Program-made: the position numbers and the translations under genes
Notes under the pieces: model-generated
The model's input: only the letters and a program-made list of their open reading frames with translations
The model's database searches: none
Told to the model about the DNA's origin: nothing
In this document: piece after piece, positions 9,346 through 57,132 of the stretch
Layout of the letters: each line of letters starts with the position of its first letter
Position numbering within the stretch: position 1 is the stretch's first letter
NCBI RefSeq assembly: GCF_000026545.1
Contig: NC_011601.1
Reading direction: 5' to 3' (one strand)
Length of the DNA: 64,000 bases
DNA from: Escherichia coli O127:H6 str. E2348/69
GTDB taxonomy: Bacteria; Pseudomonadota; Gammaproteobacteria; Enterobacterales; Enterobacteriaceae

Positions 9346-9566
9346 AAAATTAAATAATTTCATTGGTTTTATTAATGTACTTGAGATGAATATTTTCACC
9401 AGATTAGCATGACGGTGCATTCTTCAAGGCATATATGGTTAATAGTATCTTCAGTAGCATGCATAAGTATTGAGATTTTTTATGCCAGCTACGAATATAT
9501 TGCATATCTCATTCTCTGTAAGATTTCTTATTAGCACTTAGCCATTTCTAGTTAAAAGGATTAATT

Positions 9567-10449
9567 ATGAGTTTTGCAGCTACTGATTATCCATCCGGCG
9601 CACTAGCTGGATCGGGTACACACAATGTGACTTTGAGCGGCAGCGCAGTTCCTGATGGAATGTTACTGTTTGCAAACTTAGGGGGGACAGAAACAGTAGG
9701 GGAACTATTTACTTATTCTATTAAATTAAAAACTCCTGACATCCTGAACCTGGACTATGTTTCCCCCGCAGCCAACCTGCAGCTCAAACCGATGGTGGGC
9801 AAAGATCTGTGCGTCAATATCGAACTGGATGGCGGCGGAAAACGGTATATCAGCGGGCTGGTGACGGCGGCACGCGTGGCCGGTCATCAAGGACGCTCGG
9901 TGGTGTATGAACTGCGACTCGAACCGTGGTTAAAAACACTGACCCACACTAGTGACTACAAAGCGTTTCAGAATAAAAACGTGGTGGACATCCTGGATGA
10001 GGTACTGGATGAGTACCCCTGGCCAGTGGAAAAACGATTGGTAGAAAACTATCCGACTCGCGCCTGGCAGGTGCAGTACGGTGAAACAGATTTCGATTTT
10101 ATTCAGCGCCTGATGCAGGAGTGGGGTATCTACTGGTGGTTTGAGCACAACGAGAACAGTCATACGTTAGTGCTGGCTGATGCCATTAATGTCCACAAGG
10201 CATGCGCAGATTCGCCGCTGGTGTGTTATTACCAGAAAGGGCTGAAACTGGACAAGGAGTTTATCCATACCATCACAGCAAATGAAAGCCTGCGCAGCGG
10301 ACAGTGGGTGCTGAATGATTTCGACTTTATGAAGCCGCGTTCACTGCTGAAGAGCACTGTGGCTAATCCGCGTGAAACCGGCCTTGCTGAATATGAGTAC
10401 TACGAATGGCCGGGAGACTACTTCACAAAGAGTGAAGGTGAAATGCTGA
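9567..10449 (+). pseudogene. vgrG: vgrG (T6SS spike) N-terminal fragment
   Basis: gp27-like N-terminal region incl. ...[28 protein letters not shown]...; homology ends near residue ~300 and the frame then runs into nonsense; the gp5/OB-fold and C-terminal parts are absent. Confidence 0.7.
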
Positions 10450-11606
10450 CACGCATCCGAATGGAAGAACAGCGTAGCCCCGGTAGTCGGGTACAGGGCA
10501 GCGGCCAGGCAGCTTTACGACCCCGGCGGGCGACTGAAGCGCAGGGAGACATACAGCGGGATGCGCGGGGTGGTTCCGGACACGTTCACGGACCGGCAGT
10601 ACAGCTACAGCGGCGAGGATGAACTGCTGAAGACGCGGCACAGCCGGCGGGGGGAAACGGACTACTTCTATGACACCACGGGGCGCATCACGGCGTGTCG
10701 CTCGGAGGATGAGGGGTATCTGGCGAGCTGGGAGTACGACGCGGCGGGCAACCTGCTGGACAGGCGCGCGGGGGGAAGGGCCACGGCAGAAAACAGCGTG
10801 GTGCTGTTCAACCGGCTGATGTCTTACCGTGGTGTGCACTACCGTTATGACGAATTTGGCCGTGCGGTGGAAAAGGAGGGGCGGAGCGGAACACAGAGTT
10901 ACCGTTATGATGCGGAACACCGGATGGTGGAAGTGACGACAGCGCGGGAGACATACCGGTATGTGTACGATGCGCTGGGGAGGCGGACGGAAAACAGCAC
11001 ATCAGCCCTGACGGTAAACCGTACAACCGGACAAAATTTTTATGGGACGGAATGCGGCTGGCGCAGGAGAACAGGCCGGAGGGAATAAGCAGCCTGTATA
11101 TCTACAGCGACCCGGGAAGTTATGAACCGCTGGCGCGGTTGGATAAGGCGGGGAAAGAGGGACCGAACCGGATACTGTATTTTCACACGGATGTGAACGG
11201 TGCTCCGGAAGAGATGACGGACAGCAACGGGAAAATTGTGTGGGAGACGGGGTATCAGGTCTGGGGTAACACGATACAGGAGAAGGACCACGGCGGGGTG
11301 GAGCAGAACCTGCGATACCAGGGGCAGTACCTCGACAGGGAAACGGGGCTGCACTACAATCTGCACAGGTACTATGATCCGGATGTCGGGCGGTTCATGG
11401 TAACGGACCCGATAGGGCTGCGGGGCGGGTTAAACTTATATGCTTATGCGCCGAATCCGTTAACGTATATTGATCCTCTTGGTCTTTGTAAATTAAGGGG
11501 AAGTAATGGGCGCTTTAGAAGTGCACAGAATATTCAGGAAGAAATAGGCGGCCTGCCCAATTTTTCAGGAAAAACCCCCAGGGCAAATACGGCAAACTTT
11601 GCGTAA
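10450..11606 (+). pseudogene. rhs 3' core fragment with frameshift, ending in the DPxGL junction and a short C-terminal tip
   Basis: YD repeats in frame 1 ([10 protein letters not shown]..., YRYDEFGRAVEKEG..., YRYVYDALGRRTE) continue in frame 0 (PYNRTKFLWDGMRLAQE...LHYNLHRYYDPDVGRFMVTDPIGL...PLTYIDPLGL); frame switch at roughly 10980..11000 near an A run. Confidence 0.7.
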
Positions 11607-11916
11607 TCGAGTTTATTCTTCGGTACAAGCGCATAGTGGAGGAGAGGTCTGGACAAAAGCATTACCTGACGGAAATACTGTTGCAGTGAGAATTGACCCA
11701 GCAAATCCTCGCTCACCTTCACATTATGCCGATGCTGTACCTCATGCTCATATTGAAACAGTTCCAACATCCAGTGTTTCTAATGGGAATTATCGTCCGA
11801 GAGACGTGATGGGCAGGCATACTGCCACTGGTGGGGGGTCTGACCGAGGAACGAATCCGAATTATAACGCTGATGTTCACATTCCAATGTCTCCGGGACG
11901 ATCCCCATATAATTAA
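11599..11916 (+). CDS. uncertain ORF; possibly an out-of-frame continuation of the Rhs C-terminal toxin domain
   Basis: 105 aa ORF with TTG start and no clear RBS, beginning just downstream of A/C homopolymer runs at the end of the rhs tip. Confidence 0.25.
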   Translation: MRNRVYSSVQAHSGGEVWTKALPDGNTVAVRIDPANPRSPSHYADAVPHAHIETVPTSSVSNGNYRPRDVMGRHTATGGGSDRGTNPNYNADVHIPMSPGRSPYN

Positions 11917-11927
11917 TGTGAGGTTTT

Positions 11928-12206
11928 ATGAATATCCGAAATCAATATAATGAAGCCTTAAATAAATTAGATGTTGATGTTAATGATGGTTTGAGAGATT
12001 TAATAAACATATATTGTGTGGCTATTGATTCTTTTGAAAATGATATCGTTGACTCGATTGCTTTATACGTGATTGATATGGAAAATAAAGATACTTGTCG
12101 ATATCTACAAGAAATATTATCAGAGAATAAAGATCCTTATTTAGTAAAAGAGTTTAATGTATGGATAAAAGAAATTAAGAAAAATATTAAAATAAAAGCC
12201 GGGTAA
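11928..12206 (+). CDS. small AT-rich ORF in the position of an Rhs immunity gene
   Basis: 92 aa; GTGAGG RBS 6 nt upstream of ATG; very low GC; directly downstream of the rhs C-terminal tip. Confidence 0.45.
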   Translation: MNIRNQYNEALNKLDVDVNDGLRDLINIYCVAIDSFENDIVDSIALYVIDMENKDTCRYLQEILSENKDPYLVKEFNVWIKEIKKNIKIKAG

Positions 12207-12232
12207 GAAATTAAATCTTCCCGGCTTTTTAT
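12196..12232. terminator. rho-independent terminator candidate
   Basis: AAGCCGGG...CCCGGCTT stem followed by TTTTT. Confidence 0.4.
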
Positions 12233-12235
12233 TAT

Positions 12236-12436
12236 TTAACTCTCGTTCAGCACACTAAACATCGCGTCACACATCCCCTTAATCGCCTGTTTAACCTGAT
12301 AAAGTTCCCTGCGCAGTTCCTGTACTTCGTTGTTATCCGCAAGCAGGATCAGACAACCTTTCGAGATCTTCACGGTAACGCCCGTGCCGATCTCAAATCC
12401 CGCTTCTCTCAGCCATTTGGCGCTGATTTTGAGCAC
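12236..12436 (-). pseudogene. 5'-truncated SymE-like (AbrB/SpoVT-fold) toxin homolog
   Basis: ...PVLKISAKWLREAGFEIGTGVTVKISKGCLILLADN... resembles the SymE core [33 protein letters not shown] (recalled); an in-frame stop lies just upstream, so ~45 N-terminal residues are missing. Confidence 0.5.
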
Positions 12437-12450
12437 TGGCGCGTGATGCA

Positions 12451-12657
12451 GTGGGCCAGCTCATGGCAAAGGAGACAGCAGATAGCCGTACGGAATATGT
12501 CTATGATGCGGCAGACCTGCTACTGGAAATCCGCTGCAGATGGTCGTATGCCCGGGAAACGGACGCACCGGAGATTATCTGCTTCAGTTACGACAGACTG
12601 GGACAGTTGCTGACCGAGGAGACGGTGCAAAAATTCAAAATTATCCATTTAACCTAA
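12451..12657 (+). pseudogene. orphan Rhs YD-repeat fragment
   Basis: 68 aa ORF with YD-repeat-like units (TEYVYDAADLLLEI, FSYDRLGQLL); no full gene context. Confidence 0.35.
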
Positions 12658-25253: not shown

Positions 25254-25300
25254 GGTCAATTTGCGCAGGCGGATTATTTTGTGGCAAACACGTGTTCTTT

Positions 25301-25314
25301 TTGATTTCGCGCAA
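25301..25314 (+). promoter_or_regulatory. candidate FNR box in the fdnG promoter
   Basis: TTGAT-TTCG-CGCAA (TTGAT-N4-ATCAA with two mismatches) about 70 bp upstream of the fdnG ATG. Confidence 0.4.
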
Positions 25315-25378
25315 AAAGATTCAGAATTTTACTGTTAGTTTCCTCGCGCAGTAATACCCCTGAAAAAAGAGGAAAGCA

Positions 25379-28300
25379 ATGGACGTCAGTCGCAGACAAT
25401 TTTTTAAAATCTGCGCGGGCGGTATGGCGGGAACAACAGTAGCGGCATTGGGCTTTGCCCCAAAGCAAGCACTGGCTCAGGCGCGAAACTACAAATTATT
25501 ACGCGCTAAAGAGATCCGTAACACCTGCACATACTGTTCCGTAGGTTGCGGGCTATTGATGTATAGCCTGGGTGATGGCGCGAAAAACGCCAGAGAAGCG
25601 ATTTATCACATTGAAGGTGACCCGGATCATCCGGTAAGCCGTGGTGCGCTGTGCCCGAAAGGGGCCGGTTTGCTGGATTACGTCAACAGCGAAAACCGTC
25701 TGCGCTACCCGGAATATCGTGCGCCAGGTTCTGATAAATGGCAGCGCATTAGCTGGGATGAAGCATTCTCCCGTATTGCGAAGCTGATGAAAGCTGACCG
25801 TGACGCTAACTTTATTGAAAAGAACGAGCAGGGCGTAACGGTAAACCGTTGGCTTTCTACCGGTATGCTGTGTGCCTCCGGTGCCAGCAACGAAACCGGG
25901 ATGCTGACTCAAAAATTTGCCCGCTCCCTCGGGATGCTGGCGGTAGACAACCAGGCGCGCGTCTGACACGGACCAACGGTAGCAAGTCTTGCTCCAACAT
26001 TTGGTCGCGGTGCGATGACCAACCACTGGGTGGATATCAAAAACGCTAACGTCGTAATGGTGATGGGTGGTAACGCTGCGGAAGCGCATCCCGTCGGTTT
26101 CCGCTGGGCGATGGAAGCGAAAAACAACAACGATGCAACCTTGATCGTTGTCGATCCCCGTTTTACGCGTACCGCTTCTGTGGCGGATATTTACGCACCT
26201 ATTCGTTCCGGTACGGACATTACGTTCCTGTCTGGCGTTTTGCGCTACCTGATCGAAAACAACAAAATCAACGCCGAATACGTTAAGCATTACACCAACG
26301 CTAGCCTGCTGGTGCGTGATGATTTTGCTTTCGAAGATGGCCTGTTCAGCGGTTATGACGCTGAAAAACGCCAGTACGATAAATCGTCCTGGAACTATCA
26401 GTTCGATGAAAACGGCTATGCGAAACGCGATGAAACACTGACTCATCCGCGCTGTGTGTGGAACTTGCTGAAAGCGCACGTTTCCCGCTACACGCCGGAC
26501 GTAGTAGAAAACATCTGCGGTACGCCAAAAGCCGACTTCCTGAAAGTGTGTGAAGTGCTGGCCTCCACCAGCGCACCGGATCGCACAACCACCTTCCTGT
26601 ACGCGCTGGGCTGGACGCAGCACACCGTGGGTGCGCAGAACATCCGTACTATGGCGATGATCCAGTTGCTGCTCGGTAACATGGGTATGGCCGGTGGCGG
26701 CGTGAACGCATTGCGTGGTCACTCCAACATTCAGGGCCTGACTGACTTAGGCCTGCTCTCTACCAGCCTGCCAGGTTATCTGACGCTGCCGTCAGAAAAA
26801 CAGGTTGATTTGCAGTCGTATCTGGAAGCGAACACGCCGAAAGCGACGCTGGCTGATCAGGTGAACTACTGGAGCAACTATCCGAAGTTTTTCGTTAGCC
26901 TGATGAAATCTTTCTACGGCGATGCCGCGCAGAAAGAGAACAACTGGGGCTACGACTGGCTGCCGAAGTGGGACCAGACCTACGACGTCATCAAGTATTT
27001 CAACATGATGGATGAAGGTAAAGTCACCGGTTATTTCTGCCAGGGCTTTAACCCGGTTGCGTCCTTCCCGGACAAAAACAAAGTGGTGAGCTGCCTGAGC
27101 AAGCTGAAGTACATGGTGGTTATCGATCCGCTGGTGACTGAAACCTCTACCTTCTGGCAGAACCACGGCGAGTCGAACGATGTCGATCCGGCATCTATTC
27201 AGACTGAAGTATTCCGTCTGCCTTCGACCTGCTTTGCTGAAGAAGATGGTTCTATCGCTAACTCCGGTCGCTGGTTGCAGTGGCACTGGAAAGGTCAGGA
27301 CGCGCCGGGCGAAGCACGTAACGACGGCGAAATTCTGGCGGGTATCTACCATCATCTGCGCGAGCTGTACCAGGCCGAGGGTGGTAAAGGCGTAGAACCG
27401 CTGATGAAGATGAGCTGGAACTACAAGCAGCCGCACGAACCGCAGTCTGACGAAGTGGCGAAAGAGAACAACGGCTATGCGCTGGAAGATCTCTATGACG
27501 CTAATGGCGTGCTGATTGCGAAGAAAGGTCAGTTGCTGAGTAGCTTTGCGCATCTGCGTGATGACGGTACAACCGCATCGTCTTGCTGGATCTACACCGG
27601 TAGCTGGACAGAGCAGGGCAACCAGATGGCTAACCGCGATAACTCCGACCCGTCCGGTCTGGGGAATACGCTGGGATGGGCCTGGGCGTGGCCGCTCAAC
27701 CGTCGCGTACTCTACAATCGTGCTTCGGCGGATATCAACGGTAAACCGTGGGATCCGAAACGGATGCTGATCCAGTGGAACGGTAGCAAGTGGACGGGTA
27801 ACGATATTCCGGACTTCGGCAATGCCGCACCGGGTACGCCAACCGGGCCGTTTATCATGCAGCCGGAAGGGATGGGACGCCTGTTTGCCATCAACAAAAT
27901 GGCGGAAGGTCCGTTCCCGGAACACTACGAGCCAATTGAAACGCCGCTGGGCACTAACCCGTTGCATCCGAACGTGGTGTCTAACCCGGTTGTTCGTCTG
28001 TATGAACAAGACGCGCTGCGGATGGGTAAAAAAGAGCAGTTCCCGTATGTGGGTACGACCTATCGTCTGACGGAGCACTTCCACACCTGGACCAAGCACG
28101 CATTGCTCAACGCAATTGCTCAGCCGGAACAGTTTGTGGAAATCAGCGAAACGCTGGCGGCGGCGAAAGGCATTAATAATGGCGATCGTGTCACTGTCTC
28201 CAGCAAGCGTGGCTTTATCCGCGCGGTGGCTGTGGTAACGCGCCGTCTGAAACCGCTGAATGTAAACGGTCAGCAGGTTGAAACGGTGGGTATTCCAATC

Positions 28301-28426
28301 CACTGGGGCTTTGAGGGTGTCGCGCGTAAAGGTTATATCGCTAACACTCTGACGCCGAATGTCGGTGATGCAAACTCGCAAACGCCGGAATATAAAGCGT
28401 TCTTAATCAACATCGAGAAGGCGTAA
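25379..28426 (+). CDS. fdnG: formate dehydrogenase-N alpha subunit (selenocysteine-containing; Tat signal)
   Basis: ORFs 25379..25966 and 26015..28426 are in the same frame, split only by TGA at 25964..25966; twin-arginine signal MDVSRRQFFKICAGG; 1015 codons when TGA is read as Sec. Confidence 0.95.
25964..26010 (+). other. in-frame UGA selenocysteine codon plus downstream SECIS region
   Basis: TGA at the position of FdnG Sec196 (...AVDNQARV-U-HGPTVASLAPTFGRG...); the SECIS stem-loop is expected in the ~40 nt immediately 3'. Confidence 0.7.
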
Positions 28427-28438
28427 GGGGGCGAACAG

Positions 28439-29323
28439 ATGGCTATGGAAACGCAGGACATTATCAAAAGGTCCGCAACTAACTCCATCACGCCGCCTTC
28501 TCAGGTGCGTGATTACAAAGCAGAAGTCGCGAAACTTATCGACGTTTCCACCTGTATCGGCTGTAAAGCCTGTCAGGTGGCGTGTTCGGAGTGGAACGAC
28601 ATCCGTGATGAAGTGGGGCACTGCGTCGGGGTTTACGATAACCCCGCCGATCTGAGCGCCAAGTCCTGGACGGTGATGCGCTTTAGCGAAACCGAACAGA
28701 ACGGCAAGCTGGAGTGGCTGATCCGTAAAGACGGCTGTATGCACTGTGAAGATCCGGGCTGCCTGAAGGCGTGCCCGTCTGCTGGTGCAATCATTCAGTA
28801 CGCTAACGGGATTGTCGATTTCCAGTCGGAAAATTGCATCGGCTGTGGTTACTGCATTGCCGGGTGTCCGTTTAATATTCCGCGCCTCAACAAAGAGGAT
28901 AACCGGGTATATAAATGCACGCTCTGCGTCGATCGCGTCAGCGTCGGCCAGGAACCGGCTTGTGTGAAAACCTGTCCGACCGGGGCTATCCACTTCGGCA
29001 CCAAGAAGGAGATGCTGGAGCTGGCGGAACAGCGTGTGGCGAAACTGAAAGCGCGTGGTTACGAACATGCTGGCGTCTACAACCCGGAAGGGGTCGGTGG
29101 TACGCACGTTATGTACGTGCTGCATCACGCCGATCAGCCGGAGCTGTATCACGGTCTGCCGAAAGATCCGAAGATCGACACCTCGGTAAGCCTGTGGAAA
29201 GGCGCGTTGAAACCGCTGGCAGCGGCTGGCTTTATTGCCACTTTTGCCGGGTTGATTTTCCACTACATCGGTATTGGCCCGAATAAGGAAGTGGACGATG
29301 ACGAGGAGGGAAATCATGAGTAA
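28439..29323 (+). CDS. fdnH: formate dehydrogenase-N beta subunit (4Fe-4S)
   Basis: 294 aa with four ferredoxin-type Cys motifs and a C-terminal TM anchor. Confidence 0.95.
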
Positions 29324-54852: not shown

Positions 54853-57132
54853 TTAATTTGATGGTTCTAATTCAACCGGAATACTTTTATAGCCAGGAAT
54901 GCCACTTAATGGATCGTGGTTATCAAGTGTTAGCATGTGATTCGATTCTGGAAAATAGGTCACCAGTGAGCGGTCAGCCATAGGGTAAATGACCACTTTT
55001 AATCTATCCATGCGGCGTGAGCTACGTTTACCGTCTGGCGTGAGTGCAATAAGATTAACTCTTTCGCCGTTTTTTACACGGCAAATTTTAGCTTGTTTAG
55101 CACTCATAAAGACCACATCTCGTTGTCCGAATACACCTCGATAGCGATCATCCATACCATAAATCGTCGTGTTGTACTGATCGTGGCTGCGTACTGTCGC
55201 CATGACCAGTTTACTGTTAAACGCTGAAGAGGGATCTTCTAACAGCCCTTTGCTGGTAATGAAATTAGCCTTACCTGACGGCGTCATCCAGCGCCTTTCA
55301 GCAGCTGCGTTTATCAGGTGAAAACCACCAGGATGACGGATGCGCTGGTTATAGTCGGCAAACTCTGGCAGCACAGCTTCAATGTCATTGCGAATGCGAT
55401 CATAATCTTCCACCAGATACTCCCAGGCTACCACGCTCTGGGGTAGTGCTGCTTGCGCGATTCCCGCGACCACTGCACACTCTGATTTCAGCATTACACC
55501 GGCGGGTTTTAACACACCACGCGAGGCATGAATCATCGACATTGAATCTTCAACGGTTACCGCCTGCGCACCGCTTTTTTGCATGTCAATCTCGCTACGT
55601 CCCAGAACCGGCAGAATATAGCTATGCCGTGCGGTCAGCAGATGAGAGCGGTTAAGCTTAGTGGCTACGTGTACCGCCAGATCTAATTGCGTTAACGGTA
55701 CAGCGCTCGCTTCCCGATCTGGCATTGCCAGTGCAAAGTTGCCCCCCATGCAGATCAATGCTCGAGCTTGCCCCGCACATATAGCTTGCATGCTGGCGAT
55801 TGCAGCATGTCCAGGTGCATGAGGTGGGGTGAAGCCATAGCGCTCACCCAGGCGATCCAGAAACTCTGCAGACGGTTTCTCGGTGATACCGACGGTTCGG
55901 TCGCCCTGTACATTAGAGTGACCTCGTAGTGGGCAGATACCCGCACCAGGCTTGCCAATGTTACCTTTCATCAACAGCAGATTGACCAGTTGCTGTACGT
56001 TCTGGGTACCATGTTCGTGCTGAGTGATCCCCATTCCGTAACAGATAATGGTTCGTTCGGCAGCGGCATATGCATCAGCAAGTTCGGCGATTTGTGTCTG
56101 ACTTAGTCCAGAAATACGTTCGATATCTTTCCACTCGGAATTGAGCACGTCACGGCGTAGCTCGTCAAAGCCGATGGTATTCGTTTGAATAAATTCGTCA
56201 TCCAGCAATGAGGGCCGACCTGCGGCGCTTGCAGCATCATCGTGCTCAATTAACAGGCGCATCATCCCCTTGAGCAATGCCATATCGCCACCAATGCGCA
56301 CGTTATAGTAGGCACTGGCCAACTGAGTCTCAGAGTTCGTCAGCATTTCAAACGGGTTTTGCGGTGCGGTAAATCGCTCCAGGCCACGTTCCTGTAGAGG
56401 ATTGATGGCGATCATTTTCGCTCCCCGTTTCACTAAAGCGCGCAACGAAGTCAGCATGCGAGGGTGGTTTGTACCAGGGTTATGCCCAATGCAAATGACT
56501 AAATCGCATTTCTCAAAGTCTTCCAGCAACACGGTCCCTTTACCCACACCGATACTCGCTGCCAATCCCACACTGGTCGGTTCATGGCACATGTTGGAGC
56601 AGTCGGGAAAGTTATTGCTCCCGTATTCACGGGCAAAAAGCTGATAAAGAAAGGCAGCTTCATTGGAAGTGCGCCCCGAAGTATAGAATTCAACCTGATT
56701 GGGATCACTATAGCTTTGAAGGCGAGCGCCAATTTCGTCGAAAGCTTGTTGCCAGCTTAATGGCTTGTAACAGTCGCTGACGTCATCATATTTCAAAGGC
56801 TGAGTGAGACGTCCCGCAGCCTCAAGCTCGTGATCTCCCCAGGTAAGTAATGATTGAACCGTATTCTCAGCAAAGAAAGAGGCATTTACCTGCTTATCCG
56901 TGACTTCCCAGGCGATTGCTTTTGCGCCGTTTTCACAAATGTCGAATGACGCACTGTGCTTAGGATCTGGCCATGCACATCCCGGACAGTCAAAGCCCTC
57001 TGGCTTATTCATGTCAAACATGGCAATAACATCCTGGCGTATATCCATCTGCTTACGTACTGCATTCGCTACGGATTTAACAGCACCCCAACCACCGGCA
57101 GCTCCCTGGTAGGATTCAATTTTTTTCTTCAT
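54853..57132 (-). CDS. ydeP: molybdopterin oxidoreductase-family acid resistance protein
   Basis: 759 aa; formate dehydrogenase-like molybdopterin domain. Confidence 0.9.

Follow-up and report, generated by a model that had tools for sequence, protein, structure and literature searches.

The selenocysteine codon and SECIS element of fdnG in Escherichia coli E2348/69

Introduction

In Escherichia coli O127:H6 str. E2348/69, fdnG, the gene for the catalytic subunit of formate dehydrogenase-N, is divided by a TGA codon in its own reading frame. The question raised by this locus is whether the codon ends translation and leaves a broken gene, or is read as selenocysteine (Sec) with the help of a selenocysteine insertion sequence (SECIS), an RNA hairpin that follows it. 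The gene lies in a window of 64 kb (the whole stretch of 64,000 nt that was analysed), which is identical base for base to positions 1591214-1655213 of NZ_LT827011.1. Genome coordinates refer to NZ_LT827011.1, and other positions are those of the window.

The answer reached here is that TGA 25964-25966 is the Sec recoding site of fdnG in E2348/69, with a probability of about 0.97. Sec196 of fdnG and its SECIS have been on record since 1991 and are textbook knowledge, with a crystal structure (1KQF) and curated entries in Rfam and RefSeq, so the site adds no new biology. The original report of fdnGHI is Berg et al. 1991, as cited in the review PMC13188914.

The in-frame UGA of fdnG

The gene and its internal stop codon are as follows.

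25379..28426, plus strand: fdnG, formate dehydrogenase-N catalytic alpha subunit; 1015 codons plus stop, with UGA196 taken as read through
25964..25966, plus strand: UGA codon 196, very probably decoded as Sec; the only in-frame stop, aligned with X196 of 1kqf_A

According to the original prediction, the TGA at 25964..25966 splits fdnG into open reading frames (ORFs) of 195 aa and 803 aa in one frame. Both the coordinates and the ORFs agree with this: in the ORF list the two appear as 25379..25966 (195 aa) and 26015..28426 (803 aa), sharing one frame. The ATG at 25379 is in frame with the TGA ((25964-25379) mod 3 = 0), and between this ATG and the TAA at 28424-28426 the TGA is the sole in-frame stop. 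Translation across it yields a continuous product of 1015 codons with one internal stop, and there are no further stops or frameshifts in fdnG.

With the internal stop written as X, the product aligns over residues 1-1015 with PDB 1kqf_A, the nitrate-inducible formate dehydrogenase major subunit (2397 bits). The alignment is unbroken across both halves, and the TGA codon falls on residue X196 of the crystallised chain. The next-best solved structures are Sec-containing formate dehydrogenases. The NCBIfam equivalog TIGR01553, scanned with U replaced by C, matches the product with 1622.8 bits against a cut-off of 814.2. Five of the 1015 residues differ from 1kqf_A (E127D, L342F, E365A, S666A and V1011I), all of them away from Sec. 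None of the five substitutions is known to matter for function. The naming of the gene as fdnG is thus borne out by the family score and by the near identity to 1kqf_A.

The SECIS hairpin

Rfam was scanned at gathering thresholds over the whole window (the gathering score of SECIS_3 is 63). The SECIS_3 match at 25961-26019 is the only Rfam match in the 64 kb. The parts of the element are listed below, with structures from minimum free energy (MFE) folding, from Rfam and from RNAalifold; column numbers are those of the alignment described in the next section.

25961..26019, plus strand: SECIS element, Rfam RF01989 (SECIS_3); 84.3 bits, E 1.4e-18, full length over model positions 1-59
25969..26009, plus strand: whole hairpin, lower stem plus upper stem-loop, from MFE structures; register of the lower stem ambiguous
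25978..25995, plus strand: upper stem-loop GG-U-AGCAA-GUC-UUGCU-CC, presumed SelB-binding part, from MFE, covariation and RNAalifold
25980, plus strand: bulged U of the upper stem; unpaired in the Rfam, MFE and RNAalifold structures, column 20 invariant
25986..25988, plus strand: apical loop G-U-C; columns 26 (G) and 27 (U) invariant

The hairpin at 25969-26009 sits inside the fdnG reading frame, immediately 3' of the UGA. Eleven nucleotides (25967-25977) separate the UGA from the upper stem, which folded alone (25978-25995) gives the structure ((.(((((...))))))) at -4.5 kcal/mol, with 7 bp and one bulge. In the minimal SECIS of the E. coli type, for which fdhF is the paradigm, the upper stem-loop starts 11 nt after the UGA, its stem bearing a bulged U and its loop a G-U. 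The fdnG element has this spacing, the bulged U and the loop G-U. A stem-loop of this type had been expected 3' of the TGA, and it is found there within the SECIS_3 match, its bulged U being U25980 and the G-U of its apical loop G25986-U25987.

A published consensus for bacterial SECIS elements (PMC13188914) sets four constraints: loop size with a G[G|U] motif, upper-stem length, a spacing of 16-37 nt, and an MFE of at most -7.5 kcal/mol. The fdnG element lies within all four. Its loop G-U-C is closed by A25985-U25989, and the spacer from the UGA to the loop nucleotide G25986 measures 19 nt (25967-25985).

Conservation and covariation of the element

In a megablast of positions 25300-28500 on complete E. 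coli genomes, 5425 of 5426 were matched with at least 80% query coverage, and identity was 100% to three assemblies of E2348/69 (O127:H6, enteropathogenic E. coli). Of the 5433 matching E. coli records, 5432 have the SECIS 59-mer with 100% identity, and the median genome carries it twice. Other species were sampled with a degenerate V-U-H-G-P-T-V-A pattern, taking one genome per species, which gave at least 120 loci. Among the matches listed, 119 of 120 are FdnG/FdoG-type genes (FdoG being the product of the paralog fdoG) that have an in-frame TGA with long open frames on both sides. The codon was also predicted to be a conserved Sec codon, and its alignment with X196 of 1kqf_A and its retention in at least 119 orthologous loci uphold this. 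At least 25 loci of other Enterobacterales genera have a 62-mer identical to that of the window. One Streptomyces locus (L058) was left out as a chance match to the pattern, because no conserved motif follows downstream.

The alignment (A1) consists of 67 distinct ungapped 62-mers from at least 119 loci. Over this set, pairing in the upper helix amounts to 99.4%. Columns 21-33 (25981/25993) hold G-C in 52, A-U in 9 and G-U in 6, and columns 24-30 (25984/25990) hold A-U in 47, C-G in 18 and G-C in 2, with no sequence unpaired at either pair; these sequences are related, and the counts are of cells and not of independent events. Two pairs of the upper helix thus show compensatory changes, and the observed covariation score was reached by none of 500 shuffles. 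When the 3' partner is slid by 1-3 columns, pairing falls from 92% to 26-50%.

The covarying sites fall on the third positions of codons (GUN Val, GCN Ala, CUN Leu and GCN Ala), and therefore the covariation acts on synonymous sites. The codon pairings that are kept are GCA with CUU, GCC with CUG, and GCG with CUC; none is unpaired in the 67 sequences. U20 of the bulge and G26 and U27 of the loop are invariant. U27 is the third position of AGU Ser or GGU Gly and never changes despite the synonymous alternatives; the third position G18 is likewise fixed where synonymous alternatives exist. The upper helix, the bulge and the triloop come out alike in RNAalifold. The SECIS feature is far beyond chance when judged by the covariance model, the covariation and the conservation, though not by folding energy alone.

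The Sec machinery and the proposed decoding

The genes for Sec synthesis and insertion lie elsewhere in the genome, at these positions.

3986720-3986814 (locus L004, 26721-26815): selC, tRNA-Sec; annotated, and called by ARAGORN as tRNA-SeC with anticodon TCA
3893001-3894845: selB; annotated, intact
3894842-3896233: selA; annotated, intact
1910711-1911754: selD; annotated, intact

The original prediction looked for selA, selB and selC outside the window; all three are present, as is selD, and none of the four is flagged as a pseudogene in NZ_LT827011.1. The accessory genes fdhD and fdhE are also in the E2348/69 genome. No tRNA, and hence no tRNA-Sec, occurs within the 64-kb window, as expected with selC about 2.4 Mb distant. 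A search for tRNA-Sec covered 5426 E. coli genomes and matched 5424 of them. In E2348/69 the intact selC is followed directly by an IS3 remnant and then by the type III secretion island LEE (espF through escC). The selC gene is the classic insertion site of LEE.

On the basis of established E. coli work, decoding at this site would run as follows. SelD would make selenophosphate, and SelA would turn the serylated selC product, Ser-tRNA(Sec), into Sec-tRNA(Sec). The latter would be held by SelB-GTP, whose C-terminal domain would bind the upper stem-loop of the SECIS, including U25980 and G25986-U25987. The spacing of 11 nt would put the tethered SelB complex at the ribosomal A site on the arrival of UGA196, and with the complex in that place, competing with release factor 2, Sec would therefore be inserted instead of termination by that factor. 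The resulting 1015-aa FdnG is predicted to be a subunit that carries molybdenum-bis-molybdopterin guanine dinucleotide (Mo-bis-MGD) and is exported by the twin-arginine translocation (Tat) system, with Sec196 as a molybdenum ligand, as in PDB 1KQF. Together with FdnH and FdnI it would oxidise formate during nitrate respiration.

Alternative explanations

Some points weigh against reading the UGA as a Sec codon served by a SECIS. For the 52 nt of 25964-26015 the MFE is -14.6 kcal/mol (z = -0.61), which 59 of 200 dinucleotide shuffles also reach, so that the stability of the hairpin is unremarkable; this value lies below the published limit of -7.5 kcal/mol, yet it is no better than that of shuffled sequence. 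The lower stem in the Rfam register contains the non-canonical pairs A25968-C26008 and A25972-G26004 here, at -7.2 kcal/mol. As the covarying sites are synonymous and the genomes related, shared ancestry and GC bias add to the covariation counts. Finally, for SelB binding and selenium incorporation in E2348/69 we infer from E. coli K-12.

Because energy cannot tell the SECIS from chance, the covariance model and the covariation were used instead. The MFE structure of the 59-mer (-17.4 kcal/mol) has the lower stem shifted by 1 nt and fully canonical, with some extra flanking pairs. This shifted register suits GC-rich taxa worse, with pair 12-45 unpaired in 47 of the 67 sequences, and whichever register is taken, pairing in the lower helix comes to about 86% over the 67. 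Thus, the upper stem is well supported and the lower stem ambiguous in its register. As the shifted register is canonical in E. coli and poorer in GC-rich taxa, the lower stem of SECIS_3 may differ between lineages.

Were the TGA a true stop, fdnG would be a pseudogene or a split gene and its two ORFs separate or dead products, which is how a mechanical ORF call presents them, and the 195-aa and 803-aa halves are indeed on record as separate proteins in public collections. Against this stand the same TGA and 59-mer in 5432 of 5433 E. coli records, the in-frame TGA kept in at least 119 loci of other species, the unbroken alignment of both halves to one crystallised chain in a gene with no other stop or frameshift, the presence of the SECIS and of all sel genes, and a RefSeq annotation that carries no pseudogene flag. 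Conservation across the population and across species is the ground for rejecting a pseudogene or a sequencing error, and the chance that the codon is a genuine terminator is negligible. It is also extremely unlikely that the UGA is read mainly without SelB, either by a near-cognate Trp or Cys tRNA or as Cys through the Sec pathway at low selenium, with the hairpin as a generic pause. The unremarkable stability of the hairpin would suit such a pause, but the bulged U and loop G-U are invariant at synonymous positions, and therefore sequence-specific recognition is indicated and not mere stability. Moreover, tandem mass spectrometry has detected Sec-196 in FdnG and FdoG of E. coli MC4100 and never Cys at that position, and in E. 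coli K-12 with a selC mutation, or without Sec-tRNA(Sec), translation ends at UGA196 (PMC3636253).

The conservation around the TGA could also be ascribed to the protein, or to gene conversion between fdnG and fdoG, with no RNA structure involved. The active-site peptide RV-U-HGPTVASLAPTFGRGAMTNHW is nearly invariant, paralogs may exchange sequence, and a 71-nt run identical in fdnG and fdoG (see below) would suit a small conversion tract. Against this stand synonymous third positions that covary over 67 sequences in a way that preserves pairing, the fixed third positions U27 and G18, and the Rfam covariance model with its 84 bits; this explanation is almost certainly wrong. The reading that remains preferred is selenocysteine insertion at UGA196, directed by the SECIS.

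Annotation of the gene

RefSeq (PGAP) annotates 25379..28426 as one CDS, fdnG (WP_012578903.1), without a pseudogene or join flag, and current curated pipelines therefore do not call fdnG a pseudogene. The expectation that automated annotation would wrongly do so does not apply to RefSeq/PGAP; as a concern it holds for simple gene callers, with separate halves on record. The exact 195-aa N-terminal product is found on at least 1000 contigs in public protein collections, and the exact 803-aa C-terminal product on 43 contigs (e.g. EFA4419676.1). A member of the 195-aa cluster, EFN8991448.1, bears the name 'sulfate ABC transporter substrate-binding protein', apparently in error.

The site has its practical value in annotation. 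Simple gene callers, like ORF tracks, cut fdnG at the UGA, and the halves are widespread, so scans should check for a UGA and a SECIS before a pseudogene is called. The fdnG site can also serve as a clean positive control for methods that detect SECIS elements, since it is picked up by covariance models and by synonymous covariation but not by folding energy alone.

The fdn operon and other loci in the window

Two genes follow fdnG, and the start of FdnG carries a predicted export motif.

28439..29323, plus strand: fdnH, iron-sulfur beta subunit; TIGR01582 482 bits, RefSeq annotation
29316..29969, plus strand: fdnI, cytochrome b gamma subunit; NF007558 486 bits, RefSeq annotation
25388..25408, plus strand: Tat motif S-R-R-Q-F-F-K, FdnG residues 4-10, read from the translation

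FdnH scores above the cut-off of TIGR01582. The FdnI protein passes the N-type FdnI model NF007558 (486 bits, cut-off 339) and falls below the cut-off of the O-type FdoI model NF007924 (270 bits, cut-off 341); therefore the operon is fdn and not fdo. The upstream neighbours of fdnG are narZYWV-narU-yddG on the opposite strand, and the narU-yddG-fdnGHI context agrees with the N type. Twin-arginine motifs are established signals for Tat export, which is the predicted role of this one.

At 25301-25314, some 65-78 nt ahead of the start codon of fdnG, lies TTGATttcgCGCAA, an FNR-like sequence (by eye only) with 2 mismatches to the FNR consensus TTGAT-N4-ATCAA. Such a site would be in keeping with an induction of fdnGHI under anaerobic conditions. 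Directly downstream of fdnI come two genes of the other strand (30020-30582), one for a HigA-family antitoxin (yddM) and one for a RelE/ParE-family toxin.

Further from the operon, ydeP (54853-57132, minus strand), a molybdoenzyme of the FdhF/YdeP family, has an unbroken CDS in the annotation. No SECIS besides that of fdnG came out of the Rfam scan at gathering thresholds, which covered the whole window, ydeP included. Upstream of dosP (35184-37583) there is an annotated 165-nt diguanylate cyclase remnant at 37608-37772; as this remnant is all there is, the dosC partner of the dosCP operon appears to have been lost or truncated in E2348/69. A small degraded island at 8463-12630 has the look of a decayed Vgr/Rhs toxin locus: besides two hypothetical genes there are a truncated VgrG-like gene ('phage late control D'), a fragment with RHS repeats and a frameshift and, on the minus strand at 12236-12436, a type I toxin gene of the SymE family.

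Comparison with known Sec-encoding genes

The same genome carries two further genes of this kind, fdoG and fdhF. The position of the first is as follows.

NZ_LT827011.1 4277692-4280742 (locus L006, 22693-25743), minus strand: fdoG; adjoins fdoH, fdoI and fdhE

Like fdnG, fdoG has Sec at position 196 and an identical 59-nt SECIS (SECIS_3, 84.3 bits). Unlike fdnG, it belongs to an fdoGHI-fdhE operon, and as a paralog it has 74.6% nucleotide and 76.5% amino-acid identity to fdnG. RefSeq labels this gene 'fdnG', 'formate dehydrogenase-N subunit alpha'; its context (fdoH, fdoI and fdhE) is that of fdoG.

Where fdnG and fdoG have identical amino acids, the same codon is used in 60%. The longest identical run between them is 71 nt (the next is 35), and at 25961-26031 it lies exactly on the UGA and SECIS. 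In fdoG the block is at about 25091-25161 of L006, minus strand, and it extends 22 nt past the hairpin. This extension, like the 62-mer shared among Enterobacterales genera, could point to an additional constraint on the 3' flank, such as contact with the ribosome or SelB, or to recurrent micro gene conversion by which the two copies of the SECIS stay identical. Either is weakly supported and very unlikely, because the 3' extension contains just five synonymous sites, which vary freely in other taxa; identity at all five would arise by chance in about 8% of cases (0.6^5, from the 60% rate of identical codons).

The fdhF gene (formate dehydrogenase-H, Sec140) shares with fdnG the architecture of the element: the spacing of 11 nt, the bulged U, here in an upper stem GG-U-UGCA, and the loop G-U. 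It differs in its Rfam family (RF01988, SECIS_2, 87.1 bits), in a loop of 4 nt (GGUC) instead of 3 and in its lower stem, and its enzyme, unlike FdnG, is cytoplasmic, with 715 aa. Also among the closest is fdnG of E. coli K-12 (Rfam RF01989, PDB 1KQF), which corresponds to that of E2348/69 in gene, codon position and operon (fdnGHI, downstream of narU-yddG).

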